NCBI GenBank assembly: GCA_018823045.1 | Contig: JAHJIX010000002.1 | Span: 846-64,845 of the forward strand | DNA from: Patescibacteria group bacterium | GTDB lineage: Bacteria > Patescibacteriota > Patescibacteriia > Magasanikbacterales > UBA922 | DNA length: 64,000 nucleotides | Direction of reading: 5' to 3' | Shown: positions 2,364 to 51,153 of the stretch, one piece after another | Layout: each line of letters starts with the position of its first letter | Numbering within the stretch: the stretch's first letter is position 1 | Notes under the pieces: generated by a model | What the model was told of the DNA's origin: nothing | What the model saw: only the letters and a program-made list of their open reading frames with translations | Database searches by the model: none | Made by a program: the position numbers and the translations under genes

Positions 2364-2404
2364 AATATCTGTGATATTATGTACCTATTAAAAAAAGATC
2401 AAAT

Positions 2405-2584: not shown

Positions 2585-5625
<3,041 letters not shown>

Positions 5626-8447: not shown

Positions 8448-8459
8448 AAAAGAATAATA

Positions 8460-8495
8460 AAAAACAGTACATATAAATTATGCACTGTTTTTAAA
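8460..8495. terminator. Weak bidirectional hairpin plus T-run between convergent gpmI and receiver gene
   Basis: acagt(a)ca...tg(c)actgt imperfect stem followed by TTTTT. Confidence 0.35.
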
Positions 8496-8500
8496 TTATA

Positions 8501-8884
8501 TTATTTTTTCATACCCAAACGTTCTTTTACAACAGAAACAACATCTTCAATATGCCAATCTGATTTTACCAAATAATCATGTACCCCATTTTTTAGCGCA
8601 TCCTCGACCTTAAATGAGTCACTTAAATTCGTTAAAATAATCACTGGTATTTTTTTCCCAGCAGAAGTTTTCCTCAATTGCTCTAACATAGAAATACCAT
8701 CCATTTTAGGCATAATAATATCAAGCAAAATAAGATCAGGCTTCTTTTCATGTGCCATCTCTAACCCCTGTGCTCCATCATGAGCGACCAACACAGTAAA
8801 GCCAACACTCTTAAATTTCATTTCTAATGCTTTATATAGTGTCGGCTCGTCTTCAACAATAAGAAGTGTTTTATTTTTAATCAT
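8501..8884 (-). CDS. Stand-alone response-regulator receiver domain protein (CheY-like)
   Basis: 'LLIVEDEPTLY...PDLILLDIIMPKMDG...' receiver signature (acidic pocket, phospho-acceptor D, K); no output domain; start may be 8908. Confidence 0.75.
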   Translation of the reverse strand: MIKNKTLLIVEDEPTLYKALEMKFKSVGFTVLVAHDGAQGLEMAHEKKPDLILLDIIMPKMDGISMLEQLRKTSAGKKIPVIILTNLSDSFKVEDALKNGVHDYLVKSDWHIEDVVSVVKERLGMKK

Positions 8885-8892
8885 ATAAAATA

Positions 8893-9273
8893 TTATTTTT
8901 CTAAACAAGATTGCATGTCAGTAATAATTTGATCAAGACGAAAATTAGATTTTGTGTAAAATTTTTCAACACCTAATTTTTTATATTCTTCAATTTTTTC
9001 TTCACTTGCGGTATTTGAAATAGCAAAAATAGGTAAGTGTTTAAATTCTTTATGTTTTTTCATCTGTTTAATAAACTCAAGCCCGGTATCTTTTCCTACC
9101 AAATAATGATCAAGCCATATAACATCAATATCTTCAACATCTTTTAGATGATTCATTGCTTCTTTTATGGTTCTTGAAGTAATTACTCGAAAATTACTTT
9201 TTTCTAATTTAATGCGAATAGCATTCTGTAGTGGTATTTCATCTTCAATAACCAATACTGTTTTTTCTTCCAT
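8893..9273 (-). CDS. Stand-alone response-regulator receiver domain protein (CheY-like)
   Basis: 'VLVIEDEIPLQ...IDVIWLDHYLVGKDTG...' receiver signature; 126 aa, no output domain. Confidence 0.75.
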   Translation of the reverse strand: MEEKTVLVIEDEIPLQNAIRIKLEKSNFRVITSRTIKEAMNHLKDVEDIDVIWLDHYLVGKDTGLEFIKQMKKHKEFKHLPIFAISNTASEEKIEEYKKLGVEKFYTKSNFRLDQIITDMQSCLEK

Positions 9274-9279
9274 AGACTG

Positions 9280-11664
9280 TTATGATAATGATTTAGTCCC
9301 CTCTTTTCGCTTCATTCCTTTTATAGGAATAAACACATGAAATGTAGTCCCTTTATCTTTAGCAGAAACAAAACTAATTTTTCCATTTACTTGATCGAGA
9401 ATTGATTTAATAATATATAAGCCCAAACCAGTCCCCTCAGTATCTGTTTCTCGTACATTATCTGCACGAAATAATTTACTAAATATTTTATCATGCTGTG
9501 ATTTTGGAATACCTAAACCATTGTCAGCAATAATAATTTGTACATATTTTTTATCTGCTTTAATGGTCAAACTGACTTTTCCTCCTTCTTGATTATATTT
9601 AACTGCATTTGACAATAAATTTTGAAAAATCATGTATGTCAATTTTTTATCCAAATTCATTTTTGCTAATTTTTTTGGAAATGTTGTTTCTATCTTAATT
9701 TTCTTTTGTGCTGCTTGAATTTCAATTTCTTCAAGCGCTTCTTTTGCAATATCAATTAACTGCAGTGATGTGGGCTCAATTAAAAATGTTCCTAATTCTA
9801 AACGAGAAACATTTAACAGTGAATTAACCAACTCAACCATCCTCTGATTTCCTCTATAAATTTCTTGTACATACTGACTTTGTTCAACAGTCAAATGCCC
9901 TGCATCGCCATTTAACAACATTTCGGCATACCAATTAATAGCAGAAAGTGGTGTTCTTAATTGATGAGACGCTAAAGAAACAAACTCTGTTTTTGCCTGA
10001 TCTACTAATTTTTCTTGCGTTATATCTCGCTCAATACCGACAAAAAAGATCACCTCTCCTCTATTATTTAATACAGGAGTAATACTTGCTTTTGCAATAT
10101 ACTCTTCTCCACTTTTTCTTCTATTTTTAAATGCCCCCTCAAAACTTTTTTTATTATCTTTTGCAGTTTTCCATAATTCTATATATGTTTTTTGATCCAT
10201 GTTTCCTCCCCAATTTGCTGGTGAGCCTGCTTTTTGACCCAACACCTCTTCTCGACTAAAACCAGTAATTCTTTCAACAGCATTATTTGCATACAATACA
10301 ATTCCATCTGCATCAGTGATTACAATATGATCAGAAGCTTCTTCTACTGCTAATTGAAATTTTTTTAAATCATTTGCAAGTAATACTGATTTATCTCTTT
10401 CTTCTTCAACATCTTCTAAAATATTTAAAATTGCAACTTTTTGGTCTTCTAAATCTTGTGTTTGCTCTGCTAATCTATTTGTCTGATCTACAACAACCTT
10501 ATCTATATTCTTTTTTGACTGTACAATACCCTGAACTAATACATTAAACGAATGAACTAATCGTGATAATTCAAAAATCTTACCAACTTCTTCATTAATT
10601 TTTTCTTTATAATTTCCAGCAATAACATTCTCCATTTTTTGTTCAAGAATAGTAATTGGCTTGAATAGGTGCATAAGTAAATATGACAAAATAACTCCAC
10701 TTACTAATATAGTACCAACAATCCCCAAACCAACATACACAGTCAATAGATATACTGATTCTAAAAAACTTCCATCTTCTTGGACTAACAGATATACAGG
10801 CCAATCTCCTACCTGTGCATATGCAAAAATAACATTTCCATAATTATAATCTATTTCACCAACCAAACTACTATATTCACCAAATACTTCTTGCGAAATA
10901 AACACGTCTTCTAGAGGAAAAATAGTCTGGCCAACATACCGTTTTTGTTCAACAAATTCTTTTTCTATATCTTCTAATGGAAATATACTCTTAAAGATAT
11001 TTTTTTGTTGATCAGAAGAAAAAACAACTCCCCTATCATCTATATATGAAACAACCACTGAATGTTTTTTTTCATAAGCAAAATCATGTTGAACAAGGTT
11101 TTCTTTTGTTTTTAATACAACAACTCCCTTAAAATTTCCTTGAATATCCAATATTGGCTGTGAAAAATACAGCCCTAATTCTTTACTCGTAACACCCAGT
11201 GCCATATCTAGATATCCCGTTCCTGTCTTTTGTGGAACAAGAAAATAATCACGAAATCCATAATTTTTATTTAAAAAACTTTCATCAGTTGAAGCAATCG
11301 TTTTTCCATAACTATCCATGATATACACAACCAAGTAATCTTCTGAAAACAAATAGCCTTCCAAATATGTATGTACCTCTTCTTGCGAAATAGTTCCTTT
11401 CAAAAAATCACTTATTATCTGAGATGTCGCAATATGTTGAGGAACCTCTTGCGTTTTTCTAAAAAAGGAATCTACCATTAGTGATCGATCTTCAACCGAA
11501 TGAAAAAGGGTATTCTCTTTTTCTTGAATTAACTCTGCCTTTAAGAAAAAAAATATCATCAAAAAACTCACCAGTCCTAAAATGACCGCCATGATAAGGG
11601 TATTTTCTACAACATACCACTGGAGTGTTTTTTTTCTTTTCATAGAAATACTATAACGTATCAA
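9280..11664 (-). CDS. Sensor histidine kinase (TM - periplasmic dCache-like domain - TM - HAMP - PAS - HisKA - HATPase_c)
   Basis: Two TM segments bracketing an about 270-aa extracytoplasmic domain; 'LASHQLRTPLSAI' H-box; 'DNGLGIP...GTGLGLYI' G1/G2 boxes. Confidence 0.85.
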   Translation of the reverse strand: MIRYSISMKRKKTLQWYVVENTLIMAVILGLVSFLMIFFFLKAELIQEKENTLFHSVEDRSLMVDSFFRKTQEVPQHIATSQIISDFLKGTISQEEVHTYLEGYLFSEDYLVVYIMDSYGKTIASTDESFLNKNYGFRDYFLVPQKTGTGYLDMALGVTSKELGLYFSQPILDIQGNFKGVVVLKTKENLVQHDFAYEKKHSVVVSYIDDRGVVFSSDQQKNIFKSIFPLEDIEKEFVEQKRYVGQTIFPLEDVFISQEVFGEYSSLVGEIDYNYGNVIFAYAQVGDWPVYLLVQEDGSFLESVYLLTVYVGLGIVGTILVSGVILSYLLMHLFKPITILEQKMENVIAGNYKEKINEEVGKIFELSRLVHSFNVLVQGIVQSKKNIDKVVVDQTNRLAEQTQDLEDQKVAILNILEDVEEERDKSVLLANDLKKFQLAVEEASDHIVITDADGIVLYANNAVERITGFSREEVLGQKAGSPANWGGNMDQKTYIELWKTAKDNKKSFEGAFKNRRKSGEEYIAKASITPVLNNRGEVIFFVGIERDITQEKLVDQAKTEFVSLASHQLRTPLSAINWYAEMLLNGDAGHLTVEQSQYVQEIYRGNQRMVELVNSLLNVSRLELGTFLIEPTSLQLIDIAKEALEEIEIQAAQKKIKIETTFPKKLAKMNLDKKLTYMIFQNLLSNAVKYNQEGGKVSLTIKADKKYVQIIIADNGLGIPKSQHDKIFSKLFRADNVRETDTEGTGLGLYIIKSILDQVNGKISFVSAKDKGTTFHVFIPIKGMKRKEGTKSLS

Positions 11665-11968
11665 CTAATTCTTGAATTTCTTTTCTATGTTTTTGAACCA
11701 TCTTTTGGTCACGAAATTTTTCAGCAAATACCTCTAACTTATCAAGTACTTTTTGCAAACTTTCCTTTGTTGGTTGATCAAAATCTCCACCAACTTCTTG
11801 AAATATATTTTTGACTAACTCAGTACAGTATTGTTTACTCACTTCTTTATCCCCCTCAACACCGGTGTCTGTACAATGCGCTTCTCCAAAGCATGTCACC
11901 AAAGCATCTCGCACTTTTGATGGCGTCATATGTTCTGTTTTTTCTATACCATATACTTTTTTGGTCAT
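11651..11968 (-). CDS. Hypothetical small soluble protein (Cys/His-containing) wedged between GAF-PAS gene and histidine kinase
   Basis: 105-aa ORF overlapping the kinase start by 14 nt; no recognisable motif. Confidence 0.4.
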   Translation of the reverse strand: MTKKVYGIEKTEHMTPSKVRDALVTCFGEAHCTDTGVEGDKEVSKQYCTELVKNIFQEVGGDFDQPTKESLQKVLDKLEVFAEKFRDQKMVQKHRKEIQELVDTL

Positions 11969-11969
11969 A

Positions 11970-13238
11970 TCATTTTTTCTTATAATTGAGTAGTTGTTTT
12001 GTTAAATCATCTACTTCATCTTTTAATTTTCGCATTTTTAATTCTCTTCCAATCATAAATTTATTTAACTTTTCTAAATCATTCATTTTGCCTTTTACTA
12101 TTTCTTCTTGTTTCTTTTTTTCTGTAATATCTACAAAACTTTCTATTCCACCGACAATACCCCCCTGTTCATTATATAAATAATCAACGTTTTTTTCTAT
12201 CCAGAGTAACTCACCTGTTTTCGTCTTAATAGAACATTCTTTATTAAGTATTGGCTTTATTTCTTTATCATTATATAATCCACATTTTTCTCTACATGGC
12301 CCTACAGCAAATGTTTTGCAACTTTTTCCTAATACCTCTTCTTGAGAATACCCGGTAATTTCTTCTGCATGTTTATTCCAAGACAATATATGTTGCTCTT
12401 TATCGACAGTAAAAATAGCTGTTGGTATGAAATTCACGATACTTTCAATGCGTTTATGCTCTTCAAATAATTCTTTCTTTGTTTGATCTCTTTCTAAAAT
12501 AATAGCAAACTGATGAGCCGCGGCATGCAACATAAATTCTTGATTAACATCCCAGTTTCTTGCATGACGACAGTCATCGACTCCAACAAACCCCCACCAA
12601 CTTTCTTCAATAAATATAGGAACAACAAGTATAGACTCAATTTTCTGTGGAGTAAATAATTTTTTTTCTCCTACTGAAAAATCTTTTTTATTTTTTGCAA
12701 TTGATTTTCCACTTGATAATACATTTATCCAATGCTTTAAGCCTAAATCAAGAAAAGAGACATCTTTCACATATGATGCACCTTCTTGAGAACTTACCCC
12801 TTTTGCAGTCCATTCAGCAATCTGAGATGTTATAATCTTATTATTTTTTCCAACTCCATTTTTAAATATATATACCCTACTAACGTCAATTCCCATACCC
12901 AACAAAACAAGTAGCTCTTTGATATTTTTTTTTGTTACTCCCTCTAACATAAAAATACCAAAAAATTTCACCAATTGACGAAACAGTGTCATTTCTTTTT
13001 CTTGAAGCGTTTTTTGTTCTATAATATCATTTAGTTGCTTTAATACTATGTTTATTTTTTTACTCGCAAGTGCAACCGTATTTCTTTTTTTTGTTTGAGC
13101 AAATAGAGGAAGAGCTTGATTCTTTTTTATATATGTATCTAAAGAACAGATATGCTCCGATATCTGTTCATATGTTTCTATTTCTTTTTTATTTTTAGGA
13201 ATAGAAGACTTTTTTATTGTTTTTTTTGTGACAGACAT
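11970..13238 (-). CDS. GAF-PAS signalling protein with C-terminal coiled coil (no transmitter domain)
   Basis: Central GAF-like region ('...VVPIFIEESWWGFVGVDDCRHARNWD...') followed by PAS-like ('FTVDKEQHILSWNKHAEEITGYSQEEVLGKSC...') and a K/E-rich coiled coil. Confidence 0.55.
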   Translation of the reverse strand: MSVTKKTIKKSSIPKNKKEIETYEQISEHICSLDTYIKKNQALPLFAQTKKRNTVALASKKINIVLKQLNDIIEQKTLQEKEMTLFRQLVKFFGIFMLEGVTKKNIKELLVLLGMGIDVSRVYIFKNGVGKNNKIITSQIAEWTAKGVSSQEGASYVKDVSFLDLGLKHWINVLSSGKSIAKNKKDFSVGEKKLFTPQKIESILVVPIFIEESWWGFVGVDDCRHARNWDVNQEFMLHAAAHQFAIILERDQTKKELFEEHKRIESIVNFIPTAIFTVDKEQHILSWNKHAEEITGYSQEEVLGKSCKTFAVGPCREKCGLYNDKEIKPILNKECSIKTKTGELLWIEKNVDYLYNEQGGIVGGIESFVDITEKKKQEEIVKGKMNDLEKLNKFMIGRELKMRKLKDEVDDLTKQLLNYKKK

Positions 13239-13305
13239 AACAACATACTCAAATGTTTACACACAGTAACATACACAGAATATATTATTCTGTGTATAAA
13301 TACCA

Positions 13306-13809
13306 TTAGCGAACAACACTAATTTCAGTAGTAGAGCCTTCTTCTTCACAAGAACGAATGGTAATAATACCAACAGCATCTTTTTGCAAAGTATATCCTG
13401 TTGTTGATGCACTCCATGTTCCATCACCATTTGGACTAATAGGTACTTGGCCTAAATATCCTTGAGTAACTAAACCACCCAAATCAAGACAGGCTGCTTG
13501 TGTTGGATCTGTTGTACAATAATCAATGACTGGAGCTCCTGTTGCTCCTGCGGCACAATCTCCAATTAAATAGACTTGTCCTGCAGTTGCATCTGCAATT
13601 GCAGTTAAGTATGGTCCTTGGTTATCTACCTGGTCAATTTTAATTGCATTTGCGAGTTCAGCAATGTCAGACCAACGACGTGCATCACGCGCATCTTGAA
13701 ATCGTCTTAATGGATCAAGAGCAACAAATACAACACCTGCGATAATTGCAATAATTGCAATTACAATCAATAGCTCAATGAGCGTAAACCCTTTTTTCTG
13801 CATAGGCAA
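13306..13809 (-). CDS. Type IV major pilin (prepilin; class III signal peptide)
   Basis: 'MPMQKKG|FTLIELLIVIAIIAII' with Gly(-1) and Glu(+5); 4 Cys in C-terminal half; about 50% identical to adjacent paralogue. Confidence 0.8.
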   Translation of the reverse strand: MPMQKKGFTLIELLIVIAIIAIIAGVVFVALDPLRRFQDARDARRWSDIAELANAIKIDQVDNQGPYLTAIADATAGQVYLIGDCAAGATGAPVIDYCTTDPTQAACLDLGGLVTQGYLGQVPISPNGDGTWSASTTGYTLQKDAVGIITIRSCEEEGSTTEISVVR

Positions 13810-13836
13810 AAATAAAAATAAATAAAAATAAATAAA

Positions 13837-14337
13837 CTATCTTGATAATACTATTTCGTCAGCCTGCTCTGATTCACAAGCACGAAGAAATAATGTCCCA
13901 TTATCTCTCTTTTCAATCGTATATCCAGAAAACTCGCTTGTCCATTCTTTTGCTCCCGCAGGACTCACAGGCAAAGAACCCATATACCCTTCAGTTAAAA
14001 AACCAACAAAATTTATACAAGCAGTGACTGCTGGATTTACATCACAATAATTCGTTATGTCCACTGCCGTTGCTCCATTTACACAAGTCCCAATTAAATA
14101 CACAGTACTTGTTGACATTTGCTCAATGACAGCCATATACTCACCATCGTTATCAATTTGATCTACTTTTATTGCGGTCAACATTTCTGATACTTCTTGC
14201 CAACGCACGGCATCACGTGAATGCTGAAAACGAAGTAATGGATTTAAAGCAATAAACATCGCTATCATTATAATACCAATTATTGCAATAACAATCAATA
14301 GTTCTATTAATGTAAACCCCTCTTTTTGCATATACAT
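13837..14337 (-). CDS. Type IV major pilin (prepilin; class III signal peptide), paralogue
   Basis: 'MYMQKEG|FTLIELLIVIAIIGII' with Glu(+5); conserved 'RWxxxxExxxAIKxDQxDNxG' and 'YLIGxC...GAT' blocks shared with 13306..13809. Confidence 0.8.
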   Translation of the reverse strand: MYMQKEGFTLIELLIVIAIIGIIMIAMFIALNPLLRFQHSRDAVRWQEVSEMLTAIKVDQIDNDGEYMAVIEQMSTSTVYLIGTCVNGATAVDITNYCDVNPAVTACINFVGFLTEGYMGSLPVSPAGAKEWTSEFSGYTIEKRDNGTLFLRACESEQADEIVLSR

Positions 14338-14395
14338 TTTCTAAAAATGAGAAACACCTATACTCCTATAATCATTATACTATAGTATAACACAA

Positions 14396-16174
14396 TTAAC
14401 CACCATCAACCACCTGTAATACGACTGTCATCGGGATAAAAAATTCATTATTCTTTTTAAATACCTCTCCATACTCAACAGTAGAAAATGTATATAATAA
14501 TTTCTCTGGTGGCTGTTCTTTTAAATAAATGAATACTTTTTCAAGTAACAAATCAGGATCTGATTCGTATACTAACCAAGTAAACCGTTGTGTACTACTT
14601 GTTGTTTCTACTTGTATAGGATTTTTATACACAACTTCTCCTGCAAAAATTTGATCTTCTACTAATAATTTTGAATCAGACACACTTGTTTGTGTATCAT
14701 CTACAACCAAACGTCCGGGAACACTATATGGCACAGTATCTGTGTCTAAACGTGTATGAATAGGCAATAATCCACTAAATTCTTTTTTAACAATTGTAGG
14801 TAAAAGCTGCGTATGCACTACCGATACCCTTTGACGATAATAATCTCTATACCAAAAAGCAGCAAGCAGTAACAAACCCCCGACAATCAAAACAGTTACA
14901 AGTAACCCAATTTTTCCCCAAGAACTTTCTTCTTTTATGTTGATTGTTTTTCTTTGAGATACAGTAACCTCTAAATCTTTTTCTTTTAAATCATCTAAAC
15001 GAGTAATTTCATCTTTTCCAACATCTACAGATTCTTCGTCTATGGACTCTGAAATCACTTCTAGTTTTTCATTTTTATTTTCTTTCTTTCCTTCTTTTTT
15101 AGACACAATTATTTTTGGAATATCAAACTGAAACCGACTTTCAAATAATGATGTCTTTAAAGCACGACAAGCAAGACCAATTGCTTCAATAAACAACAAT
15201 GGTGTTTGCTTTTCCATATACGGAGATGAAGCAATGCTCGTGGTCTTTTCTAATTTTTTCTCAATATATGGAGCCAAACCACTCATCCGACTAGAGTGCC
15301 CTGCAATAATGATAGTGCCCACAACACTATCGTACTGACTTTCATAATAGGCAAGTGTCTTTTTAATATCAACAATAAGCTCATCTACCTGTTTTTGTAA
15401 CGCAACACTAACCCGATCTTTTTTAACAATTCCTTTTGTTTTTTTCTTTTTTTCAACATCGGCTTTTTTTACTCGAGTAGCCATTGCTGCTTTTGCGGTA
15501 AAATAATTACCTGCAACTTGACTCGTATGGCTAAACGCAAAACCATTTTGATCAACAATATAGATATTACTCGTATATGCCCCAATATCAACAATACAAG
15601 CAGGCTCTTTGGGCATTACAGAAAAAATTCCATTAACCAGTGCCACAGCCTCACTATCAAATGCTACAATTGGAATACGTGCTTTTGTTAACACCCTATT
15701 CCATGCTTCAAATACGTGCTTTTCCATTGCTCCTACTAACACACGAATACCCAATGTTTTATGCTCTTGCAATATAGAATAACTATACAATAATGACTCC
15801 ATCGGAATAGGCATAATTGACGCAATCTCTTTTTTGATATGGCTATCTCTTTGCCTTTTCTTTACCCATGGAATTTGAATAATATGCGTATATACAATTG
15901 CACCCGGTAAACCAATAACAACATTTTTTAATTCAATTTTTTTAGGCTTTGCACGACTAGCAACCTCTTTTAATGCCTCAAGCAATGCCACCTCATCTTT
16001 TACCACCCCACGCTCAAGTACTCCTTCTGCTAATTCAACGCGACCAAAAGAAACAATTTTCATCTTCCCTGCATTTTTTTTCAATAACACAATTTCGATA
16101 TCCCTATCTTGAATATCGAGTCCAATTGCTTTTGAAGAAAAAACACCCATAAAAAAAATTATTCTTGTGTCCAA
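14396..16174 (-). CDS. pilM: Type IV pilus assembly protein PilM (actin-like ATPase) fused to a TM-anchored PilN/PilO-like C-terminal domain
   Basis: N-terminal about 350 aa PilM/FtsA-like ('IGLDIQDRDIEIVLLKK...VDIGAYTSNIYIV'), K/E-rich linker, one TM (LLVTVLIVGGLLLLAAFWY), then an about 160-aa extracytoplasmic domain. Confidence 0.75.
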   Translation of the reverse strand: MDTRIIFFMGVFSSKAIGLDIQDRDIEIVLLKKNAGKMKIVSFGRVELAEGVLERGVVKDEVALLEALKEVASRAKPKKIELKNVVIGLPGAIVYTHIIQIPWVKKRQRDSHIKKEIASIMPIPMESLLYSYSILQEHKTLGIRVLVGAMEKHVFEAWNRVLTKARIPIVAFDSEAVALVNGIFSVMPKEPACIVDIGAYTSNIYIVDQNGFAFSHTSQVAGNYFTAKAAMATRVKKADVEKKKKTKGIVKKDRVSVALQKQVDELIVDIKKTLAYYESQYDSVVGTIIIAGHSSRMSGLAPYIEKKLEKTTSIASSPYMEKQTPLLFIEAIGLACRALKTSLFESRFQFDIPKIIVSKKEGKKENKNEKLEVISESIDEESVDVGKDEITRLDDLKEKDLEVTVSQRKTINIKEESSWGKIGLLVTVLIVGGLLLLAAFWYRDYYRQRVSVVHTQLLPTIVKKEFSGLLPIHTRLDTDTVPYSVPGRLVVDDTQTSVSDSKLLVEDQIFAGEVVYKNPIQVETTSSTQRFTWLVYESDPDLLLEKVFIYLKEQPPEKLLYTFSTVEYGEVFKKNNEFFIPMTVVLQVVDGG

Positions 16175-16569
16175 GACACAATATCTATACCATTGTTGAG
16201 ATCAACTCCAACAACAAGCGTTGTATAAAAATGATCATCAATATCTGCGTTTACAGTTACCGTTTGTAAACCACCTCCATTGTCTACTACTTCTATTATA
16301 CATGAATTTACTCCATCATTCAATGTACTTCCATTATAATTACTGTCTTGTCTTAATTGTTCTAATCCTTCATGTACACAGCCTTCTGCAAATGCTAAAC
16401 TCTCTCTTCCTTGTTGCATGGTGTACCCCATTTCTAAATCATTAATACCCAAAAAAGAAGCAGAAAATGCCATAATAAGCGCAGCAGCTCCTACCACCAC
16501 AACTAAAAGAAGGGCTGCAAATCCACGATGATTAGTGCAAAGCAATTGCGGTTTGAATCGATTGATCAT
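16159..16569 (-). CDS. Putative PilX/ComGG-like minor pilin (hydrophobic N-terminus without Glu+5)
   Basis: '...NHRG|FAALLLVVVVGAAALIMAF' resembles a prepilin leader and TM but lacks E5; start uncertain; overlaps upstream gene by about 40-70 nt. Confidence 0.4.
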   Translation of the reverse strand: MINRFKPQLLCTNHRGFAALLLVVVVGAAALIMAFSASFLGINDLEMGYTMQQGRESLAFAEGCVHEGLEQLRQDSNYNGSTLNDGVNSCIIEVVDNGGGLQTVTVNADIDDHFYTTLVVGVDLNNGIDIVSWTQE

Positions 16570-17056
16570 AGATGAAATCAGGGTCAGTTGTATCGGCATA
16601 ATAATTTGTTGTTATATCAAGTTGAATACTTCCTGGCGTATTTGGAACAGCAATATGATGCAAAAGAAAAGTCTCTAATTGTACTTCAGCACTTGTGATT
16701 ACTACTGCAGGATCTGCTCCTTGTTGAATATATAATCGTCCATTATCTTGATCAAGTGAAAATACGGTTGGATCTTTTGCAACATCATTCATTTGTAAAG
16801 ATAGCACCCCCGGATCACTATCAAACACAGAAGCACCTATATTTATTCCTGAAGCTTCATGCACATGACGCGTAATCACATCAAGAGCAATTCTATTATT
16901 TGCGTGTACTTCTTGCACAACATACGTTTTTGTGCGCGAAGAAGTAACAGCTAAAATAAAAGAGATAAAGGTTACCAATACACCACTAATAATTGCAATA
17001 TACAAAATAGTTTCTACAAATGAAAATCCGCGTTTATTTTGAATGATCTTTTGCAT
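16532..17056 (-). CDS. Minor pilin / pseudopilin (prepilin-type N-terminal cleavage-methylation domain)
   Basis: 'MQKIIQNKRG|FSFVETILYIAIISGVLV' with Glu(+5). Confidence 0.7.
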   Translation of the reverse strand: MQKIIQNKRGFSFVETILYIAIISGVLVTFISFILAVTSSRTKTYVVQEVHANNRIALDVITRHVHEASGINIGASVFDSDPGVLSLQMNDVAKDPTVFSLDQDNGRLYIQQGADPAVVITSAEVQLETFLLHHIAVPNTPGSIQLDITTNYYADTTDPDFIYDQSIQTAIALH

Positions 17057-17057
17057 A

Positions 17058-20000: not shown

Positions 20001-22256
20001 ATAACTATTAGGGTCTTCGACACCATCTATATAAAAATGAAGTAGCCCTGCACCATAAGTAACAGCCACGTGATGCCAACGTGTGTTATCAATTGTATTT
20101 AAGCTAAAGAAATCATCACTATTCAACTGAAATACTATTTGCCCACTATTATCAATCCATACTGAATACGATTCATCATAAGCTCCCTTTGTCAAGATAT
20201 CAGGCTGTCCTGAATAATCACCATTAATCCAAAATTCGATACTCAAGGTATCAGTCAAATCAAGTGCAGCACTACTTACACAAGAAATATAATCATCAGT
20301 AAACGTATATGCACTATTATATTTTCCATTATTTGTTATTGCAGCTCCATTGTTTGTACATGAATGCCCCTGTCCTGAATCATCATCCAAATTACCATTC
20401 AAGTGCATTAATAACACATTGCCACTCATATCAATAGCACCATCTGTATAATCAATTTCAATACCCTCATCATTTGGCAATTCTTTTCCATATGGGAAAG
20501 CGCTCATCCAAGAAAATGTTTGCCAGTCTATTAATTTATTTGTATCAATAACTTGTGACGTAAATATACCACTATTATTTGTCAATCCAGTATTATCAAG
20601 CTGCAGATGATCTACACTAAACTCTGTATTAGTATAATCACCAGCATCCCATTCTGCTTGTGTATCTTCTCCAATATCCACACAGGCACACCCTACTTCT
20701 TTATACCATCCAATTTCGTTATCATCCCCCTCAGAAACAACAAAAAAGTAAGACCCCAATATACTCCCTTGATGAATCACACTTGATGCACCATCATAAT
20801 CAAATACCGTATGCTCTAGCACATTTGTCGGGTCATCAATACCAAACATGACAAACTCCTCATCCCATTTTGCTTGTGCAGAAAATATATAATCTCCAAG
20901 TACTGTTAAACGATCAAAGTTTGTTGTTCCTCCACCATAACTAAAAGTATCATCGAGTACTGGATTATCTGGATTGGAAATATCAATACTATACATATTT
21001 CCTGTCCAATTATCTGCAGAAGCAAATATATGTGTATCCTTTAACACAATATCACTTAATTTTACCCACCCAGGAAAATCAATGCCACCAACAGCACTAA
21101 TATTTGCAACATCGCTAATATCGAGCACAATAAACTCAGTATCTCCTTCTGTTGCAAGATACGCATAATCACCATCTACACTCACACCCAATATATTTTT
21201 ATCTACATCATATAATGATGCAGGATCTACTAAATCAATAGCAAGTGGATTTAAAATATTTAAGATAAAAAATTCAGCGCCTGCACCATTTTGCTCTGTC
21301 ACCACATATGCAACGTTCCCGTCAATATAGATATCATATGCATCAAGTGCCGCACCTACAATATCATATGTCGCGACTTCGGTAATTGCTCCTGGATTTG
21401 AAATATTTACCACACTTAATTCATCATTTTGTGCTTTTGCAATATAGGCATAATTTCCTGAAATAGCTATTTCATGAATCGTATTTCCAAGATCAATACT
21501 GCTTGTTTCTACCAATGTTGTCGGGGCAGTAAAACTATAAGCATGCAACATTGTGCCACGACCCACAAATATATGGGTATCTGTTGAGGCAATGGTGGTG
21601 GCATCATCAACTCCTGCCATATCAAAAGAAGCAACAGGCTCTATACAATCCCAAGGAGAATCTCCACCACCAGGCGTATACTCAAGTACAACAGCACCAT
21701 CACCATCTCCTAAAGTATTTGATACTTCAACAGCATTTAATGTTCCATCAGAAAATTCTGCCGTGGTATCCTCAATCCACTCATATGAATCCCAGTTTGT
21801 TAGATACATGACTTTTCTTACTTCATTGGTCAAACCAGGACGAATCTCCCAAGACACAAGAACTAACGCTTTTTTTGAATAAATATCAACATGATCTCCT
21901 GGGCAATTGACAATATTATTATGTACATCACGACACACATCTTCAAAAGTAATTGTTCGTGTATATTGACCAATCGTTTCACTCGTCCCCTCTCCCTGAA
22001 AACTCCACCCATCTACAGTAGTAGTTACATCACTTTGGGCATAATCAAATTCATTCCAAGCACGATCTTGAATAGCACGCACCGCAGCTAATCCTTCTTG
22101 CGCAAGTGCTTCGGCCTGCGTTTGTTCCCCTCCTTGCTCTAAACCAGCAAAGCCACCACCAGATAGTGCAATCAATGCAACAGCACTTAACGCAAAAATA
22201 GTCATTGCTAAAATGACTTCTATCAAACTTTGCCCTTTTTTAGAAAAAAATACCAT
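17058..22256 (-). CDS. Giant (1732 aa) prepilin-signal protein: putative pilus-associated adhesin with LVIVD-type beta-propeller, two LamG/ConA-like lectin modules and a 7-repeat beta-propeller
   Basis: N-terminus 'MVFFSKKG|QSLIEVILAMTIFAL' (Gly-1, Glu+5); 'GNYAYIA...NISNPG' LVIVD-like repeats; two modules with 'WHHVAVTY...LHFYIDGV' / 'WNHIVLTY...LYINGV' LamG cores each followed by 'LNxTxQxRSCxDxLCxG'; seven about 51-aa repeats 'YAVVYxGxGSDGWIKT'. Confidence 0.8.
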   Translation of the reverse strand: MVFFSKKGQSLIEVILAMTIFALSAVALIALSGGGFAGLEQGGEQTQAEALAQEGLAAVRAIQDRAWNEFDYAQSDVTTTVDGWSFQGEGTSETIGQYTRTITFEDVCRDVHNNIVNCPGDHVDIYSKKALVLVSWEIRPGLTNEVRKVMYLTNWDSYEWIEDTTAEFSDGTLNAVEVSNTLGDGDGAVVLEYTPGGGDSPWDCIEPVASFDMAGVDDATTIASTDTHIFVGRGTMLHAYSFTAPTTLVETSSIDLGNTIHEIAISGNYAYIAKAQNDELSVVNISNPGAITEVATYDIVGAALDAYDIYIDGNVAYVVTEQNGAGAEFFILNILNPLAIDLVDPASLYDVDKNILGVSVDGDYAYLATEGDTEFIVLDISDVANISAVGGIDFPGWVKLSDIVLKDTHIFASADNWTGNMYSIDISNPDNPVLDDTFSYGGGTTNFDRLTVLGDYIFSAQAKWDEEFVMFGIDDPTNVLEHTVFDYDGASSVIHQGSILGSYFFVVSEGDDNEIGWYKEVGCACVDIGEDTQAEWDAGDYTNTEFSVDHLQLDNTGLTNNSGIFTSQVIDTNKLIDWQTFSWMSAFPYGKELPNDEGIEIDYTDGAIDMSGNVLLMHLNGNLDDDSGQGHSCTNNGAAITNNGKYNSAYTFTDDYISCVSSAALDLTDTLSIEFWINGDYSGQPDILTKGAYDESYSVWIDNSGQIVFQLNSDDFFSLNTIDNTRWHHVAVTYGAGLLHFYIDGVEDPNSYNVAGPIDIIPDDLTLSSNSQWALDGATLDEVAIYNRVLSAEEISDRYIRGAANLTHQIRSCDDELCAGENFIGPDGTNSTYFSELLNSTLTTPSVTVSGTIAQSKYIQYQTTFESIDQMTNPKLYSVTIGEGCGNIATVAESIIDDTTDEFNTGTYNDTEWNGTNVLLNATGLVNGTGEYISEVFNVTSTATWQDFSWVPNEPYGIALPNNGATEVGYIQGNISMSNNIFLLHLDEASGNVLDTSGNGNDGVATGLSYEISGRYDTAVRLEGGSDAITIADNASLDISDDITIEMWIKDSADSSSELTIEQSLLGSLEYDTSQSYYPKIINISGDVYAVVYRGPGNDGWMKTFSVDASGQNIVSLFSKEFDTSYGTTPTIVQVNGSIYAVVYAGLGSDGWIKTFDIQANGQIGNQIDSLEYDNKNGLSPSVLAVDADTFVISYRGDSSDGWFATVDISATGNISNNYIDRYEFDNTDCFETDLIEVGNNIFAVVYSGVDSDGFIKTIEIEDNGNIVGSIIDTFEYNTSQGRYPDIIAISGDVYAISHQGSGSDGFIKTVTIDVNGQIGAEIDSLEFDTDNTIMSSLVHMSDNNYAVFYTGNNNNGYLKVVEIENNGQIGNAVVDSYQFISNGRYPYMLSLGNGLLLGAYTDVVNHGWVSTFSFGGGDVHIAIGKNNSYGFSLSSADVSAFINDSVVSSTLSAGWNHIVLTYNKDEVADQQKLYINGVEVATGTYTQNIAVNNEDFVVGNGVVATFDEMALYSRVLSAQEILDRYRRGILNITYQVRSCNDVLCVGDAYTGSDGTGGTYFDQAGVVGVPSYNLAITDGQYFQYRAVLSSEHATHTPQFSEVRVDYERPDVFIPPVGGGGGPASYALSGTYISSAYDMGANTRAIQGLTWEESFSNCIGCSIQLQIRTADTQGNLAAAPWSGINEAGTFYTEAIGSLVPTVYNGDRWIQYQAILHGDTVGTPILERVQVNYK

Positions 22257-22259
22257 AGA

Positions 22260-22733
22260 CTATAATGATTCAATTGCACCAAATGCATTTACTGAAACAG
22301 AAAATGTTCCTTGAATTGCATGAGTAATGATCACGGTCCCTGTATTTTGTGCGTCTCCCAATCCTTTCGTAAATACTATGTCAACATCGCCACCAGTCAA
22401 AGCAAAACCAGCTGTTGTTACTTCAAGCACTGGCTCAAATATATATGTTCTGTCATATGCAGGATCACGCAAAGCATAGCTATCTCCCTGATAAAATATA
22501 TATACATCATCTCCTGCAGGATCACGGTCAATAAATATACCATGTGACGCATCATTCACTCCTGCAACCGCTTCTTGACGTGCTTGACGCAATACAGAAA
22601 TCAACTGTGCACCAGATTCATCTAATTGTGCTCGTGTTTGAAATTGTGAATACACCGGAATTCCAGCAACAACCAAAAGAGTGCTCAAAGCAATAACCAT
22701 TAACAATTCAACTAACGTTACACCCTTTTTCAT
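22260..22733 (-). CDS. Pseudopilin (GspH/FimT-like, prepilin-type N-terminus)
   Basis: 'MKKG|VTLVELLMVIALSTLLVV' with Glu(+5); ORF-track start at 22811 would overlap pilC, internal ATG at 22733 preferred. Confidence 0.7.
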   Translation of the reverse strand: MKKGVTLVELLMVIALSTLLVVAGIPVYSQFQTRAQLDESGAQLISVLRQARQEAVAGVNDASHGIFIDRDPAGDDVYIFYQGDSYALRDPAYDRTYIFEPVLEVTTAGFALTGGDVDIVFTKGLGDAQNTGTVIITHAIQGTFSVSVNAFGAIESL

Positions 22734-22743
22734 AAAAAATAAC

Positions 22744-23838
22744 TTAGCGCTTAATACTTCCGGTAATATTATAAATTGGTGTAATAATTGAAATTGCAAG
22801 AAAAGCAACAATCATTCCGATACCAAGCAAAAGTATTGGCTCAATTGCAGTTGCTAAACTCTTTGTCGCATTATCAACTTCCACCTCATAAAATTCAGCC
22901 AAATAATTAAGTGTATCTTCTAAATTTCCTGATTCTTCTCCCACCAACACCATACGCGTTACCATTGAGGGAAACAATCTTGGATACAAACCCAAATTTT
23001 CTGCCATACTACTTCCTTTTTCTAAACGATGCAATACTTTATCAAGTGCATGTTGATAATAGTAATTTCCTAATGATTGACGAGTCACAGCAAGTGCCTC
23101 ATCAACATTTAAACCACTACGAAGCAATGTGGATAATGTTCGTGAAAATCGTGCCAAATTAACATTATGACTAATTGAGCTTAATACTGGAAGATGAAGA
23201 AGCAACCAATGACTAATTGGACGCATAAATTTTCTCCTAAACAACCAAATAACAAAGAGAACTGTTCCCGTAATGCTAAAAAATAATAAAGGTCCATGAT
23301 CGTTTACAATTTGTGAAAATTGAATGAGTAAACGAGTACTCAAAGGTAACTCCGTTTTTAATCCTTGAAATAATGGAATAATTTTCGGCAAGACTAAAAA
23401 GGACATGGTCATTGCCAAAATAAATGAAGCAATCAACACCACAATTGGATAGAGCATTGCTCCTTTTACCTTACTCACCAAATTTTTTTCTTTTTGTAAT
23501 TGCTCTGCTAAATGTTCTAAATTTTCGTCAAGTGTCCCTGATTTTTCTCCAGCATAAATTGCACTAATAAAAATACCTGGAAAAATATTATCATACCGTT
23601 GAAATGCATCTGACAATGAATTACCAGATTCAACTGATTCTCTAATCTTGATCAAAATATTTTTCATTTTTCCTTGTGCAGAATCAGCAACAATATCAAG
23701 AGACTCTACAATACTCAAACCAGACCGTTGCATAACGGCCAAATGTTTTGCGAGCAATGCTTTTTGGGTGAGACCAGTTCCACCAATAGCAATATTTTTC
23801 TTCAATACTGAAATTTTTTTCTTTTTTTTGACAGGCAT
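22744..23838 (-). CDS. pilC: Type IV pilus inner-membrane platform protein PilC (GspF family)
   Basis: Two GspF-type repeats ('LSxAFxRYDNIFPGIFISAIYAGEKSGTLDENLEHLAEQL' and 'LYPRLFPSMVTRMVLVGEESGNLEDTLNYLAEFYE') and 3 TM segments. Confidence 0.85.
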   Translation of the reverse strand: MPVKKKKKISVLKKNIAIGGTGLTQKALLAKHLAVMQRSGLSIVESLDIVADSAQGKMKNILIKIRESVESGNSLSDAFQRYDNIFPGIFISAIYAGEKSGTLDENLEHLAEQLQKEKNLVSKVKGAMLYPIVVLIASFILAMTMSFLVLPKIIPLFQGLKTELPLSTRLLIQFSQIVNDHGPLLFFSITGTVLFVIWLFRRKFMRPISHWLLLHLPVLSSISHNVNLARFSRTLSTLLRSGLNVDEALAVTRQSLGNYYYQHALDKVLHRLEKGSSMAENLGLYPRLFPSMVTRMVLVGEESGNLEDTLNYLAEFYEVEVDNATKSLATAIEPILLLGIGMIVAFLAISIITPIYNITGSIKR

Positions 23839-23906
23839 GAGGCTAAATTCAGAGATAAAACATTATGCTTTATTAGAAATACAGCACACTATTTTATTTC
23901 AAAAAA

Positions 23907-25592
23907 TTATGTTTCAGCTACACGCAAAATTTCTTCTAATGTTGTCACACCATTAAAAACCTTATCCATTCCATCTTCAAGCAAGGTAATCATTCCTTCT
24001 TTTATTGCTTGCTCTTTAATTTCATCACTTGATCCTTGATTTACAACAAAAGGCCGAATTCCTTCAGACATTTCAAGCACCTCAAAAATACCAATACGAC
24101 CATGATACCCAGTATCTCCACAAATTTTACAGCCAGCTCCTTTATATAAACGCCATTTACTTGGCGCATCATAGCCCTTACTTTTTGCAAGCCCTAATAA
24201 TTCATTTCTTCCCTTTAAAATAAGTTTATCTTCTTCGGTTAACCTATATGATGCACGACAATGTGTACAAATCTTTCGAACCAAACGCTGTGCAATAATA
24301 ATATTAATCGTTGAGGCAACCAAAAACGGCTCAACCTCCATATCGAGCAAACGTGGCAATGTTGTTGGTGCATCATTAGTATGCAAAGTAGAAAGAACCA
24401 AATGTCCTGTTAAGGCGGCATTCGTTGCAATATTTGCCGTCACTTCATCACGAATCTCTCCCACCATAATAATATCAGGATCTTGACGCACCAATGATCT
24501 TAATCCTTTTGCAAACGTTAAATCTGTTTTTGTATTTACTTGAATTTGCGTAACTCCTTCAACATTATACTCAACAGGATCTTCAATCGTTGCAATATGA
24601 ATTTTACGCTCATTTAAAATTTTCAATACTGCATATAATGTTGTGGTCTTTCCACTTCCGGTTGGTCCTGTCACTAATACCATACCATGCGGATGACGAA
24701 TTGCTCGCTTAATTTTTTCTAAATTTACAGAAGCTAAACCAATATCTGTTAAACTAAATTGTCTATTTTTTTGAGTCAACAAACGCATCACAATATTTTC
24801 CCCATGCACAGATGGTAAAATAGATACACGAACATCTACCCGTTGCTTACTAGTTGAAAATTTAAACTTTCCATCTTGTGCCGCTCGATGCTCATCAGTC
24901 CGCATTTTTGACAAAATTTTAATACGAGTCAAAATAGCATCAGAGAATTCTTTTGGTAATTCAAGCACATCATGCATTACCCCATCTATACGAAACCGAA
25001 CAACAATCTTTGTCGCATATGGCTCAACATGGATGTCTGACGCTTTATTTTCAAATCCATACTGCATCAAAATATCAACCATTTCCACCACTAATTCATC
25101 CCGAGATTCACGACTTCTTTCTTTTTCAAACACATCTAAAAGCTCTTTAAACTGCTCTTGCATGTTTGATTTATATAATGCAATAGCTTTATCAAAGTCT
25201 TCTTCTAAAATAAGATATACTTTAATCTTACCAAAACGTTTTTCTAACAACTCACGTACAGGTAAATTTGACGGATCGAGCATACCAATCTTCATTTCAT
25301 TTTTTCCTTGTGAAAAAGCAATTACACCTTGTTTTTCTGTCACTGCTTGCGGAATAGACACAATTGCTTCTGCATCAATTCTCATCGTATCAAAATCTGC
25401 AAATGGAACCTGATAATACTCTGCCAACCCCTCACCCAATACCTGCTTGTCTAAAATTCCTTCAATAAAAAAATAATCCAAAAGGGTTCCCCCATGGGAA
25501 TCTACAAACTCTTGTGCAGCAACAACATCTTTTTCATCAATATAATGCTGCTCCAACAAGATATCTTTTATCTGCGCGTCATCGATACGCAT
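23907..25592 (-). CDS. pilB: Type IV pilus assembly ATPase PilB (GspE family)
   Basis: Walker A 'VTGPTGSGKTTTLYAVL', Asp box, Walker B, His box, tetracysteine motif 'CTHC...CKIC'; N-terminal GspII-like domain. Confidence 0.9.
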   Translation of the reverse strand: MRIDDAQIKDILLEQHYIDEKDVVAAQEFVDSHGGTLLDYFFIEGILDKQVLGEGLAEYYQVPFADFDTMRIDAEAIVSIPQAVTEKQGVIAFSQGKNEMKIGMLDPSNLPVRELLEKRFGKIKVYLILEEDFDKAIALYKSNMQEQFKELLDVFEKERSRESRDELVVEMVDILMQYGFENKASDIHVEPYATKIVVRFRIDGVMHDVLELPKEFSDAILTRIKILSKMRTDEHRAAQDGKFKFSTSKQRVDVRVSILPSVHGENIVMRLLTQKNRQFSLTDIGLASVNLEKIKRAIRHPHGMVLVTGPTGSGKTTTLYAVLKILNERKIHIATIEDPVEYNVEGVTQIQVNTKTDLTFAKGLRSLVRQDPDIIMVGEIRDEVTANIATNAALTGHLVLSTLHTNDAPTTLPRLLDMEVEPFLVASTINIIIAQRLVRKICTHCRASYRLTEEDKLILKGRNELLGLAKSKGYDAPSKWRLYKGAGCKICGDTGYHGRIGIFEVLEMSEGIRPFVVNQGSSDEIKEQAIKEGMITLLEDGMDKVFNGVTTLEEILRVAET

Positions 25593-25610
25593 AACCCCTC
25601 TTTATTTTAA

Positions 25611-25982
25611 TTATTTAAGAATCTTTTCTATATGCTTAATAACATCAGATAAGGGTGTATTTGATTTAACAAAATAATCTTTTGCCCCTAATTCACGCAC
25701 CCGTTTTTCATCTTGCTCTTGACTCAAATTGGTTGAAACAATAATCGGTACTTTTATTTTTTTCTGTTTTACTTGCTCGAGCACTCCAAACCCGTCTAAT
25801 TTAGGCATCACTAAATCAAGCAATACCAAATCAATACCACCTTTTACTAAGAAATCAATCGCTTCTTGCCCATTATTTGCTACGGTAACATCATAGCCGA
25901 TATGCTGTAATTTTAACTGCAGTGCTTTTGCCATTGGTTTCTCGTCTTCTGCTACGAGAATCATTTTTTTCTTTCCTGCCAT
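25611..25982 (-). CDS. Stand-alone response-regulator receiver protein (CheY/PilH-like) immediately upstream of pilB
   Basis: 'ILVAEDEKPMAKAL...IDLVLLDLVMPKLDG...' receiver signature, 123 aa. Confidence 0.75.
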   Translation of the reverse strand: MAGKKKMILVAEDEKPMAKALQLKLQHIGYDVTVANNGQEAIDFLVKGGIDLVLLDLVMPKLDGFGVLEQVKQKKIKVPIIVSTNLSQEQDEKRVRELGAKDYFVKSNTPLSDVIKHIEKILK

Positions 25983-26051
25983 AGAGATTCAGACAATAAT
26001 AACAATATATATGTTAAATTATACCACAATTTTATATAAACAAACAAATTA

Positions 26052-26405: not shown

Positions 26406-26425
26406 TATGTATCTTTTTTACTCAG

Positions 26426-26506
26426 TGCCGACGGTGGGACTCGAACCCACACGCTGGAAGCACCTGCTCCTAAGGCAGGCGTGTATACCAATTTCACCAC
26501 GTCGGC
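26426..26506 (-). tRNA. tRNA-Leu (anticodon UAG), type II with long variable arm
   Basis: Minus strand: gccgacg...cctgc-cTTAGga-gcagg...long variable arm...ggttcgagtcc...cgtcggc-a; anticodon loop c-t-TAG-g-a; no encoded CCA. Confidence 0.8.
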
Positions 26507-51149: not shown

Positions 51150-51153
51150 TAAT

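Follow-up and report, generated by a model that had tools for sequence, protein, structure and literature searches.

A type IV pilus gene cluster with an embedded classical histidine kinase and three stand-alone receivers in a Patescibacteria group bacterium

The analyzed DNA is a stretch of 64,000 nucleotides (nt) from the metagenome-assembled genome of a Patescibacteria group bacterium, an uncultured and ultrasmall organism (Magasanikbacterales, UBA922; GenBank assembly GCA_018823045.1, contig JAHJIX010000002.1, positions 846 to 64,845 of the forward strand), referred to below as the window. Its minus strand carries a type IV pilus gene cluster (window positions 8501-25982), in which genes for a classical histidine kinase and three stand-alone receivers (REC1, REC2, and REC3) are embedded. 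The gene content, the canonical phospho-residues, and a linkage between signaling and pilus genes that is conserved, in permuted orders, across phyla of the Candidate Phyla Radiation (CPR) were observed directly. We give about an even chance to the reading that this two-component system controls the pilus post-translationally, with REC1 as the output arm acting on the extension ATPase PilB or on its partners PilM or PilC. Protein-protein action was taken as the default, because no receiver has a DNA-binding or enzymatic output. Post-translational control would also be the most economical explanation, since the receivers are output-less and REC1 stays beside the extension ATPase gene through rearrangements.

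Signaling genes of the cluster

The cluster consists of 15 minus-strand open reading frames (ORFs), as identified from the ORF listing and Pfam and NCBIfam scans. In the direction of transcription, these encode REC1, PilB, PilC, four minor pilins, PilM with a transmembrane (TM) helix, and two major pilins, followed by a GAF-PAS sensor, a small four-helix protein, a dCache-HAMP-PAS histidine kinase, REC2, and REC3. An earlier sequence-only reading had the same order and strand but counted sixteen genes; the count of 15 matches the NCBI protein numbering (MBU0661170-184). Exact NCBI protein matches were found for PilB (MBU0661183), the small four-helix protein of 105 amino acids (aa) (MBU0661173), and a phosphoglycerate mutase (MBU0661169). 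The intergenic gaps, described in that reading as tiny or overlapping, were measured at −68 to +68 nt (successively 18, 68, 10, 3, 1, −68, −16, 58, 27, 67, 1, 7, 6, and 8 nt). The signaling genes are listed below.

25611-25982, minus strand: REC1, stand-alone receiver, 123 aa, directly upstream of PilB (Pfam Response_reg, E 1e-22)
11970-13238, minus strand: cytoplasmic GAF-PAS sensor without an output domain, 422 aa (Pfam PAS_9, E 1.6e-13; GAF, E 3.2e-5)
11651-11968, minus strand: small four-helix protein of an uncharacterized conserved family, 105 aa (209 cluster representatives at E ≤ 1e-3)
9280-11664, minus strand: histidine kinase with the order TM, dCache, TM, HAMP, PAS, HisKA (H567), HATPase_c (Pfam dCache_1, PAS, HisKA, HATPase_c)
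8893-9273, minus strand: REC2, stand-alone receiver, 126 aa (Pfam Response_reg, E 1.4e-13)
8501-8908, minus strand: REC3, stand-alone receiver, 127-135 aa (Pfam Response_reg, E 4.2e-26)

As proposed before, all three response regulators are single-domain receivers (123-135 aa), and no DNA- or RNA-binding or enzymatic output domain was found in any of them with Pfam. The acidic pocket, phospho-accepting aspartate, threonine or serine, aromatic switch, and lysine are all present in REC1-3 (in REC1, E12/D13, D56, T84, Y103, and K106). Across 139 related receivers, D56 was kept in 137, T/S84 in all 139, and K106 in 136, and the acidic pocket and aromatic switch were nearly invariant in every positional class. 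Because of this near invariance, the proteins are regarded as working receivers and not pseudo-receivers. REC1 and REC3 are close paralogues (phmmer E 1.4e-24). The REC1 homologues, all ~120-130 aa long, are 55-76% identical across CPR, as compared to 34-51% for the kinase and 38-65% for PilB (best aligned segment), and such high conservation would fit a multi-partner hub.

In a neighbor-joining tree built from REC1-3 and the 139 receivers of related loci (142 stand-alone receivers in all), the proteins were grouped by gene position. REC2 was placed within a block of 19 consecutive receivers, all encoded directly after a kinase, the neighbors of REC1 were mostly receivers encoded directly upstream of PilB, and REC3 was found with second-position receivers. 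By sequence, the receivers do not appear to belong with PilG and PilH, whose chemosensory logic the earlier reading had invoked: the best PDB and NCBIfam matches were OmpR-family receiver domains (PhoP, YycF) and RR468 of Thermotoga, which also stands alone, and no PilG/PilH model was matched by the receivers. REC2 and its post-kinase orthologues in other loci also exceed the Pfam gathering score for cREC_REC (PF20274; for REC2, 31.9 bits vs 27); despite this match, REC2 probably represents a divergent receiver subfamily.

The kinase is 787 aa long from the NCBI start at 11643 and 794 aa otherwise. It is of the classical HisKA type (HisKA, E 3.2e-17; HATPase_c, E 6.1e-27), with two TM helices and a large extracytoplasmic dCache domain, as had been read from the sequence. 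That reading was also right about the absence of CheA: the search of the cluster genes and of the rest of the window gave no CheA-type kinase (Hpt and P3-P5), methyl-accepting chemotaxis protein, or CheW. Many full-length orthologues of the same domain order occur in CPR bacteria; in a 33-sequence alignment, they were 34-51% identical, and the H-box (H567), N682/686, and G boxes were invariant. The HAMP domain was read in the sequence and seen in orthologues, which carry PF02743 and PF00672. A conserved helix, LNILEDVEEE, lies between HAMP and PAS.

The external ligand suggested earlier as the gate for the pilus would be only one input, as the module includes the cytoplasmic GAF-PAS co-sensor and relatives exchange dCache for CHASE4. 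The GAF-PAS protein ends in a C-terminal helix motif (MIGRELKM..LK.EV, window 11970-12060), which is common to output-less sensors encoded upstream of the kinase in ~11 related loci. The motif M[IV]GRE[LM][KR]M..LK.E[IV] was located 11-22 residues before the stop in 16 of 18 ORFs carrying it, and all output-less sensors encoded just upstream of the kinases (PAS, GAF-PAS, and dCache-HAMP types) have this ending. The tail may be a docking coiled coil or helix, or else a remnant of split kinases. Sensors with the tail motif were found in the following related loci.

L001, 7784-8683
L003, 6442-7683
L004, 6803-8341 and 8778-10004
L006, 9462-10010
L009, 8175-9473
L011, 7486-9021
L168, 655-1959
L046, L072, L089, and L091

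The 105-aa protein, previously called a small orphan, turned out to belong to a sizeable family. Its 209 representatives were obtained by an exhaustive search, and a word-indexed search returned the query alone. The family is unannotated, with members of ~100-125 aa and a predicted four-helix bundle; no Pfam match was found for the 105-aa protein, and its AlphaFold2 (AF2) model has four helices at a predicted local distance difference test score (pLDDT) of 79.5. Members elsewhere (L166, 658-975; L167, 381-698; L168, 336-680) are translationally coupled to output-less HAMP-PAS or dCache-HAMP sensors. The family is not core to the pilus-kinase architecture, as its profile matched none of the 165 kinase- or PilB-seeded related loci. 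A role as an Hpt phosphorelay intermediate was considered and rejected, since helix 2 has no HxxKG-type histidine and no significant PDB fold match was obtained (best E 0.9).

Linkage to pilus genes in related genomes

The sequence-only reading had turned on whether related genomes keep the signaling genes linked to the pilus genes, and they were found to do so, co-directionally, in many CPR lineages and in two permuted orders. The kinase-seeded scan used one genome per GTDB species and yielded 80 CPR loci, which were annotated by phmmer with the 15 proteins of the cluster. PilB was encoded within 10 kb of the kinase in 15 of the 80 loci, always co-directional and contiguous with it. These loci occur in Saccharibacteria, Magasanikbacteria, WWE3, Levybacteria, and Peribacteria. 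The chance of a random gene lying within 10 kb of pilB was put at ~2-6%, as a rough estimate from ~1-Mb genomes and 1-3 pilB copies, with no computed control.

Two arrangements were distinguished. The first, to which the window belongs in gene order, is REC1-PilB-PilC-minor pilins-(PilM)-pilin-[sensor]-HK-REC2(-REC3), where HK is the histidine kinase (arrangement A: L007, L009, L011, L014, L016, L024, L026, and L047). The second is HK-REC2-REC1-PilB-PilC-...-pilin (arrangement B: L005, L031, L035, L049, L050, L052, and L056). In the kinase-seeded set, all 11 PilB-adjacent receivers were of the REC1 type, and 11 of 13 PilB genes had one. Look-ups of single contigs (L001, L005, and P0011) agreed with this. 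L001, whose kinase is 49% identical, encodes the giant pilin, minor pilins, PilM, a pilin, a GAF protein, a 438-aa protein, the kinase, and a receiver; L005 encodes sensors, the kinase, two receivers, PilB, PilC, minor pilins, and a pilin; and L004 encodes pilins, sensors, the kinase, and a receiver. The contig P0011 has a receiver, PilB, two small ORFs, the kinase, and three further receivers.

The PilB-seeded set, which is unbiased with regard to the kinase, comprised 65 metagenomic loci in which a full PilB was preceded by at least 500 nt. A stand-alone receiver was encoded directly upstream in 14 of them (22%), and in 10 of 36 among the 42 closest PilB proteins. A kinase of at least 300 aa was present in no fewer than 12 of 75 loci, a minimum in view of the many short contigs. 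Variant orders were also seen (PilB-(small HK)-REC-PilC and REC-pilin-pilin-PilB). When REC1 was used as the seed, PilB was the next gene in two of three contexts; in the third, L172, no PilB was seen. In the locus L170 (112-18125), the order REC1-PilB-PilC-five small proteins-HK-REC is kept with a CHASE4 kinase in place of dCache, so the architecture of arrangement A can be kept while the sensor domain changes. Ahead of it in L170 lies a 3295-aa ORF without any Pfam match.

Adjacency might also have arisen without any coupling, if the commonest two-component module came to lie by chance beside pilus genes in tiny, strand-biased CPR genomes. The window itself offers room for this, as co-directional genes continue past the cluster to 30768, with a negative GC skew nearly everywhere; pilus neighbors are missing from many kinase paralogues, and the receiver is missing in 78% of the PilB-seeded loci. 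Chance alone is, however, a very improbable account of a linkage that occurs in at least five CPR lineages and persists when the sensor domain is exchanged, and of two permutations that both keep HK beside REC2 and REC1 beside PilB. The linkage is far above the rough 2-6% chance estimate, which supports the two-component reading. It is thus frequent, widespread, and robust to rearrangement and sensor swap, but not universal.

An adjacent PilT was encoded in none of 28 receiver-linked clusters, as compared to 8 of 53 clusters without a receiver (loci L001-L165). This trend is weak, and suggests that the receiver-linked clusters could be a subtype lacking the retraction ATPase.

Pilus genes, transcription signals, and neighboring features

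The pilus genes of the cluster, in the direction of transcription, are as follows.

23907-25592, minus strand: PilB-type pilus extension ATPase, 561 aa (Pfam T2SSE, E 1.6e-126, and MshEN N-domain)
22744-23838, minus strand: PilC platform protein, 364 aa (Pfam T2SSF twice, E 5.6e-59; NCBIfam GspF/PilC)
22260-22733, minus strand: GspH/FimU-like minor pilin, 157 aa from MKKG|VTLVE (N_methyl/TadF; NCBIfam GspH/ComGD-like N-terminus; class III signal peptide)
17058-22256, minus strand: modular minor pilin, 1732 aa, prepilin N-terminus KG|QSLIE (Pfam N_methyl, LVIVD, and Laminin_G_3 twice)
16532-17056, minus strand: minor pilin, 174 aa, RG|FSFVE (class III signal peptide; weak N_methyl match)
16159-16599, minus strand: PilX/GspK-like minor pilin without Glu5, 146 aa (hydrophobic prepilin-like N-terminus RG|FAALLL)
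14396-16174, minus strand: PilM (residues 1-320) with a TM helix and a ~150-aa ectodomain, 592 aa (Pfam PilM_2, E 1.3e-22; TIGR01175 pilM)
13837-14337, minus strand: major pilin candidate 1, 166 aa, EG|FTLIELL (Pfam N_methyl, E 3.5e-8)
13306-13809, minus strand: major pilin candidate 2, 167 aa, KG|FTLIELL (Pfam N_methyl, E 8.8e-10)

The machinery is that of an ordinary CPR monoderm-type type IV pilus cluster, with no secretin. PilB scored 527 bits against the NCBIfam type IV-A PilB model TIGR02538, under the equivalog cut-off of 676, and its MshEN N-terminal motifs, judged by eye, do not have the conserved R and G positions, which bears on cyclic di-GMP (c-di-GMP) control. N_methyl matches and class III signal peptide motifs (G|F/V-x-x-x-E) were found in six cluster genes; the PilX/GspK-like gene has no E5. 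No Pfam match was found for the PilX/GspK-like protein, but its gene position is conserved in relatives, and a gene homologous to that of the 174-aa minor pilin (phmmer E ≤ 1e-5) is in the equivalent position in relatives. The two major pilin candidates are paralogues (phmmer E ~3e-53). The designation pilM-N in the sequence-only reading held for the PilM half, which was detected by Pfam; the C-terminal half had no PilN or PilO Pfam match at E ≤ 5, and its AF2 model (pLDDT 50) was unusable. Both pilD and pilT had been placed outside the cluster, and neither was found anywhere in the window: no Peptidase_A24 motif or Pfam match was present among its multi-TM ORFs, although PilD could be encoded elsewhere in the genome, and no second PilB/PilT homologue was detected.

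The 1732-aa LVIVD/LamG pilin, with its lectin-like domains, is a putative tip adhesin, and a large pilin-like gene is present at the equivalent position in relatives. The pilus, whose largest minor pilin is of this modular, lectin-like kind, probably serves adhesion. Modular type IV pilins have been described from Streptococcus sanguinis, where the pilins PilB (vWA) and PilC (lectin) combine a class III signal peptide pilin with adhesion domains; the lectin pilin is concanavalin-A-like and of the LamG type (PF13385), and CPR modular pilins were already noted in that work (PMC8179133). The protein of the window is far larger than these and has LVIVD repeats and two LamG domains, and an adhesive role is putative for it.

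Four transcription signals were located in or directly next to the cluster.

26018-26026, minus strand: extended −10 promoter-like element, TGGTATAAT, within the 69 nt that precede REC1 (read from sequence)
14374-14392, minus strand: two overlapping −10-like elements, TGTTATACT and TAGTATAAT, within the 58-nt gap ahead of the first pilin gene (read from sequence)
13271-13297, minus strand: hairpin with an 11-bp stem and no U-tract, directly after the second pilin gene (folding)
8460-8492, minus strand: intrinsic terminator with a 14-bp stem and U-run, ending the cluster and facing the convergent pgm gene (terminator scan)

The terminator region (8440-8505, 66 nt) folds with a minimum free energy (MFE) of −16.2 kcal/mol (z −5.9; 0 of 200 shuffles as stable), and this is the only strong intrinsic terminator in the cluster; other terminator-like matches lie inside coding regions, have weak stems, and were taken as chance. 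The 72-nt gap holding the post-pilin hairpin (13239-13310) has an MFE of −22.6 kcal/mol (z −3.7 vs shuffles), and the hairpin is a possible attenuator or RNA stabilizer between the pilus and signaling genes. At the same junction in relatives, hairpins were found in L001 and L007, a full terminator and promoter in L047, and gaps of only 2-20 nt in L011, L024, L026, and L111. A sigma-70 consensus scan was uninformative (96 sites vs 93 expected), and no riboswitch or other known RNA, including a c-di-GMP riboswitch before the pilins, was found in the intergenic gaps at E ≤ 1.

The minus-strand run goes on upstream of REC1 through the Smr, tRNA-Leu, RNase J, and SBP genes to 30768, and the GC skew is negative in all but 3 of 32 windows of 2 kb, so co-directionality alone is weak evidence for an operon. 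The tight gaps and the one strong terminator after REC3 fit the proposal of a single operon. Given the extended −10 element before REC1, the −10-like elements before the pilins, and the strong hairpin after the second pilin, one 17.5-kb transcript is probably not all there is; the cluster is best taken as one co-directional unit with probable internal tuning around the highly expressed pilin genes.

The known pilus-linked kinase system PilS-PilR is transcriptional, and the module of the window could likewise control pilus gene expression, its receivers acting on RNA polymerase, a sigma or anti-sigma factor, an RNA-binding factor, or translation, for example by read-through of the hairpin after the pilin genes. 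The promoter-like elements before the pilins and the hairpin after them would be possible regulatory points, and translation-level regulation has been argued to be important in these organisms (PMC11665869). We nevertheless consider control of expression unlikely: a DNA- or RNA-binding domain is missing from all three receivers, neither the cluster nor its relatives encode a partner transcription factor, and a general expression switch would leave the specific, conserved adjacency of REC1 and pilB unexplained.

Other features of the window were recorded alongside. An Smr-domain protein (117 aa) and tRNA-Leu are encoded directly upstream of REC1, after RNase J (26052-26506, minus strand). A 23S rRNA gene (2588-5616, minus strand) is ~100 nt longer than the Rfam model, and a 5S rRNA gene is located at 2404-2510 (minus strand). 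Rfam matched no small subunit rRNA anywhere in the window, so that the 16S rRNA gene does not lie next to these two and the rRNA operon seems to be unlinked. In a predicted lipoprotein-like ORF of 305 aa (51100-52017, plus strand), a Kazal-type serine protease inhibitor domain was matched (E 2e-7), an unusual domain for a bacterium.

Proposed control of the pilus and its significance

We infer the phosphotransfer routes, the contact between REC1 and PilB, and the direction of the effect as follows. The membrane kinase, with its dCache ectodomain, HAMP, and cytoplasmic PAS, would autophosphorylate on H567, with probable help from the output-less GAF-PAS sensor and the small four-helix protein encoded alongside it. 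In this way, it would integrate an extracytoplasmic cue (dCache) with cytoplasmic cues (its own PAS and the GAF-PAS co-sensor), and hand the phosphate to the stand-alone receivers. REC2, the steady neighbor of the kinase, is the likely primary partner, and REC3 may be a second acceptor, either a sink or a second output. Phosphorylated REC1 would contact the extension motor (PilB, or its partners PilM or PilC) and permit or block pilus assembly, and the display of the giant lectin-domain tip pilin would be turned on or off accordingly.

The signal could also run in reverse, with the pilus or pilin pool as the input. The kinase would then monitor the pilin inventory or pilus-mediated contact with a host or surface, and the receivers would relay to other functions, such as attachment or the transition from swarmer to mother cell. 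Both PilS, which senses membrane PilA, and Pil-Chp, which senses pilus dynamics, offer precedents (summarized in PMC11656802). In arrangement A, the kinase gene comes directly after the major pilin genes, and a trio with a REC1-type receiver beside a heliorhodopsin gene, without PilB, indicates that such receivers can serve other inputs or outputs. Against this flow, the kinase combines a large ligand-binding dCache ectodomain with just two TM helices, whereas the pilin-sensing PilS has six; the swap of the sensor to CHASE4 in L170 argues for variable external cues; and the constant neighbor of REC1 is the motor ATPase. We regard reverse flow as quite unlikely, and return to REC1 acting on the motor.

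Several observations weigh against control of the motor through REC1. In the window, REC1 lies 14 kb from the kinase, which makes the pairing of the two tentative. The post-pilin hairpin and possible internal promoters suggest that the pilus and signaling genes may be transcribed partly separately. No upstream receiver is encoded in 51 of the 65 PilB-seeded relatives, and kinase paralogues with 1-4 receivers occur without pilus genes (L002, L003, L010, L017, L018, and L033; in L002 and L003, with 2-4 receivers). In L172 (10001-12080), the heliorhodopsin gene comes directly after three receiver genes, one of the REC1 type (58% identical), one of the REC2 type, and one for a receiver of 95 aa, with PilB not nearby; the same receiver trio appears to be coupled to a light-sensing protein. 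Receiver-less PilB loci, pilus-less kinase loci, and this trio mean that the module is not exclusively dedicated to pili. Moreover, in the pilus literature searched, the published Saccharibacteria pilus loci are described without a kinase or receiver.

Among known systems, PilS-PilR of Pseudomonas, Geobacter, and Myxococcus is alike in that kinase and response regulator genes lie next to the major pilin gene pilA. PilR is a sigma-54 enhancer-binding protein with AAA+ and helix-turn-helix (HTH) domains, and PilS is a pilin sensor with six TM helices. In the window, by contrast, the receivers are bare, without AAA+ or HTH, and the kinase has two TM helices and dCache; with no sigma-54 regulator, the signaling module is not PilS-PilR. 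The Pil-Chp system of Pseudomonas (PilJ-ChpA-PilI with the receivers PilG and PilH) also controls a type IV pilus with stand-alone receivers, with more than one receiver per kinase and a proposed division into output and sink (PMC11656802; PMC11973254). There, PilG and PilH follow the same logic downstream of a CheA-type kinase. Here, the kinase is instead a classical HisKA dCache protein, the receivers resemble OmpR-family domains and RR468 and not CheY or PilG, and the bacterium is of the monoderm-type CPR, with no PilT encoded nearby. The signaling module is not a Pil-Chp system.

Closer parallels are found in Xanthomonas. The single-domain response regulator EmvR binds PilB, repressing its ATPase, and has the classical kinase ColS as a further binding partner; phosphotransfer from ColS to EmvR was not detected by the authors (PMC11973254). 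DrdR (REC-REC) binds PilB and PilT and stimulates both (PMC13507683). An output-less receiver acting on PilB is the mechanism proposed here, in our case from the gene adjacency of REC1 and pilB and from conservation. The Xanthomonas proteins are encoded by orphan genes apart from the pilus genes, and ColS also has the DNA-binding partner ColR, whereas the kinase, co-sensors, and three receivers of the window lie inside the pilus cluster with no DNA-binding partner. In Synechocystis, PATAN-REC regulators (PixE/PixG family) bind the motor PilB1 and steer pilus activity (bioRxiv 10.1101/2021.06.11.447907). Unlike the receivers here, which have no extra domain, those regulators include a PATAN domain, and their input comes from CheA-like kinases. 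By analogy, the signaling of the window would work most like the route of EmvR and DrdR, from bare receiver to PilB.

Type IV pili are well known from CPR bacteria (PMC6744442, PMC11623550, PMC9894109). In Saccharibacteria (TM7x, TM7i, Southlakia), they are needed for host attachment and twitching, and they are essential in S. epibionticum (PMC11623550, PMC9894109, PMC11665869). Those pili belong to the same broad lineage and likewise have no secretin, but TM7x locus 1 includes PilT, PilD, and PilN/O, all of which were not found in the cluster described here. No receiver or kinase tied to CPR pilus loci is mentioned in the CPR pilus papers, a CPR protein-family survey, the Southlakia genetics paper, a 2024 CPR perspective, or a 2024 review of PilB cofactors, absence from the literature searched being no proof.

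In cultivated Patescibacteria, host attachment, motility, and even viability have been shown to depend on type IV pili, as on few other systems (PMC11623550, PMC9894109, PMC11665869), and the mechanisms by which these bacteria switch between motile and host-attached states were called "completely unknown" in a 2024 perspective (PMC11665869). With pili at the center of the epibiotic lifestyle, and even essential to it, their control is of consequence. The kinase-receiver module embedded in the pilus cluster is a concrete candidate for the control of attachment, with named residues (H567 of the kinase and D56 of REC1) and a named target (PilB), and it would extend the bare-receiver-to-motor mechanism of EmvR and DrdR from proteobacterial orphan genes to an operon-encoded form in a distant monoderm-type lineage. 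More tentatively, and with some doubt, a CheA-independent pilus switch may be widespread in Patescibacteria, in which one classical kinase with exchangeable sensors (dCache, CHASE4) and docked output-less co-sensors would phosphorylate a fixed trio of bare receivers, with the highly conserved REC1 binding PilB directly. If so, this switch would be the long-sought host- or environment-sensing device that times the extension of adhesive, lectin-tipped pili in the passage from free, motile to attached epibiotic CPR cells. As its linkage to pilus genes recurs in many CPR lineages, the module is a good candidate for how host-dependent CPR bacteria decide on the deployment of their attachment pili.

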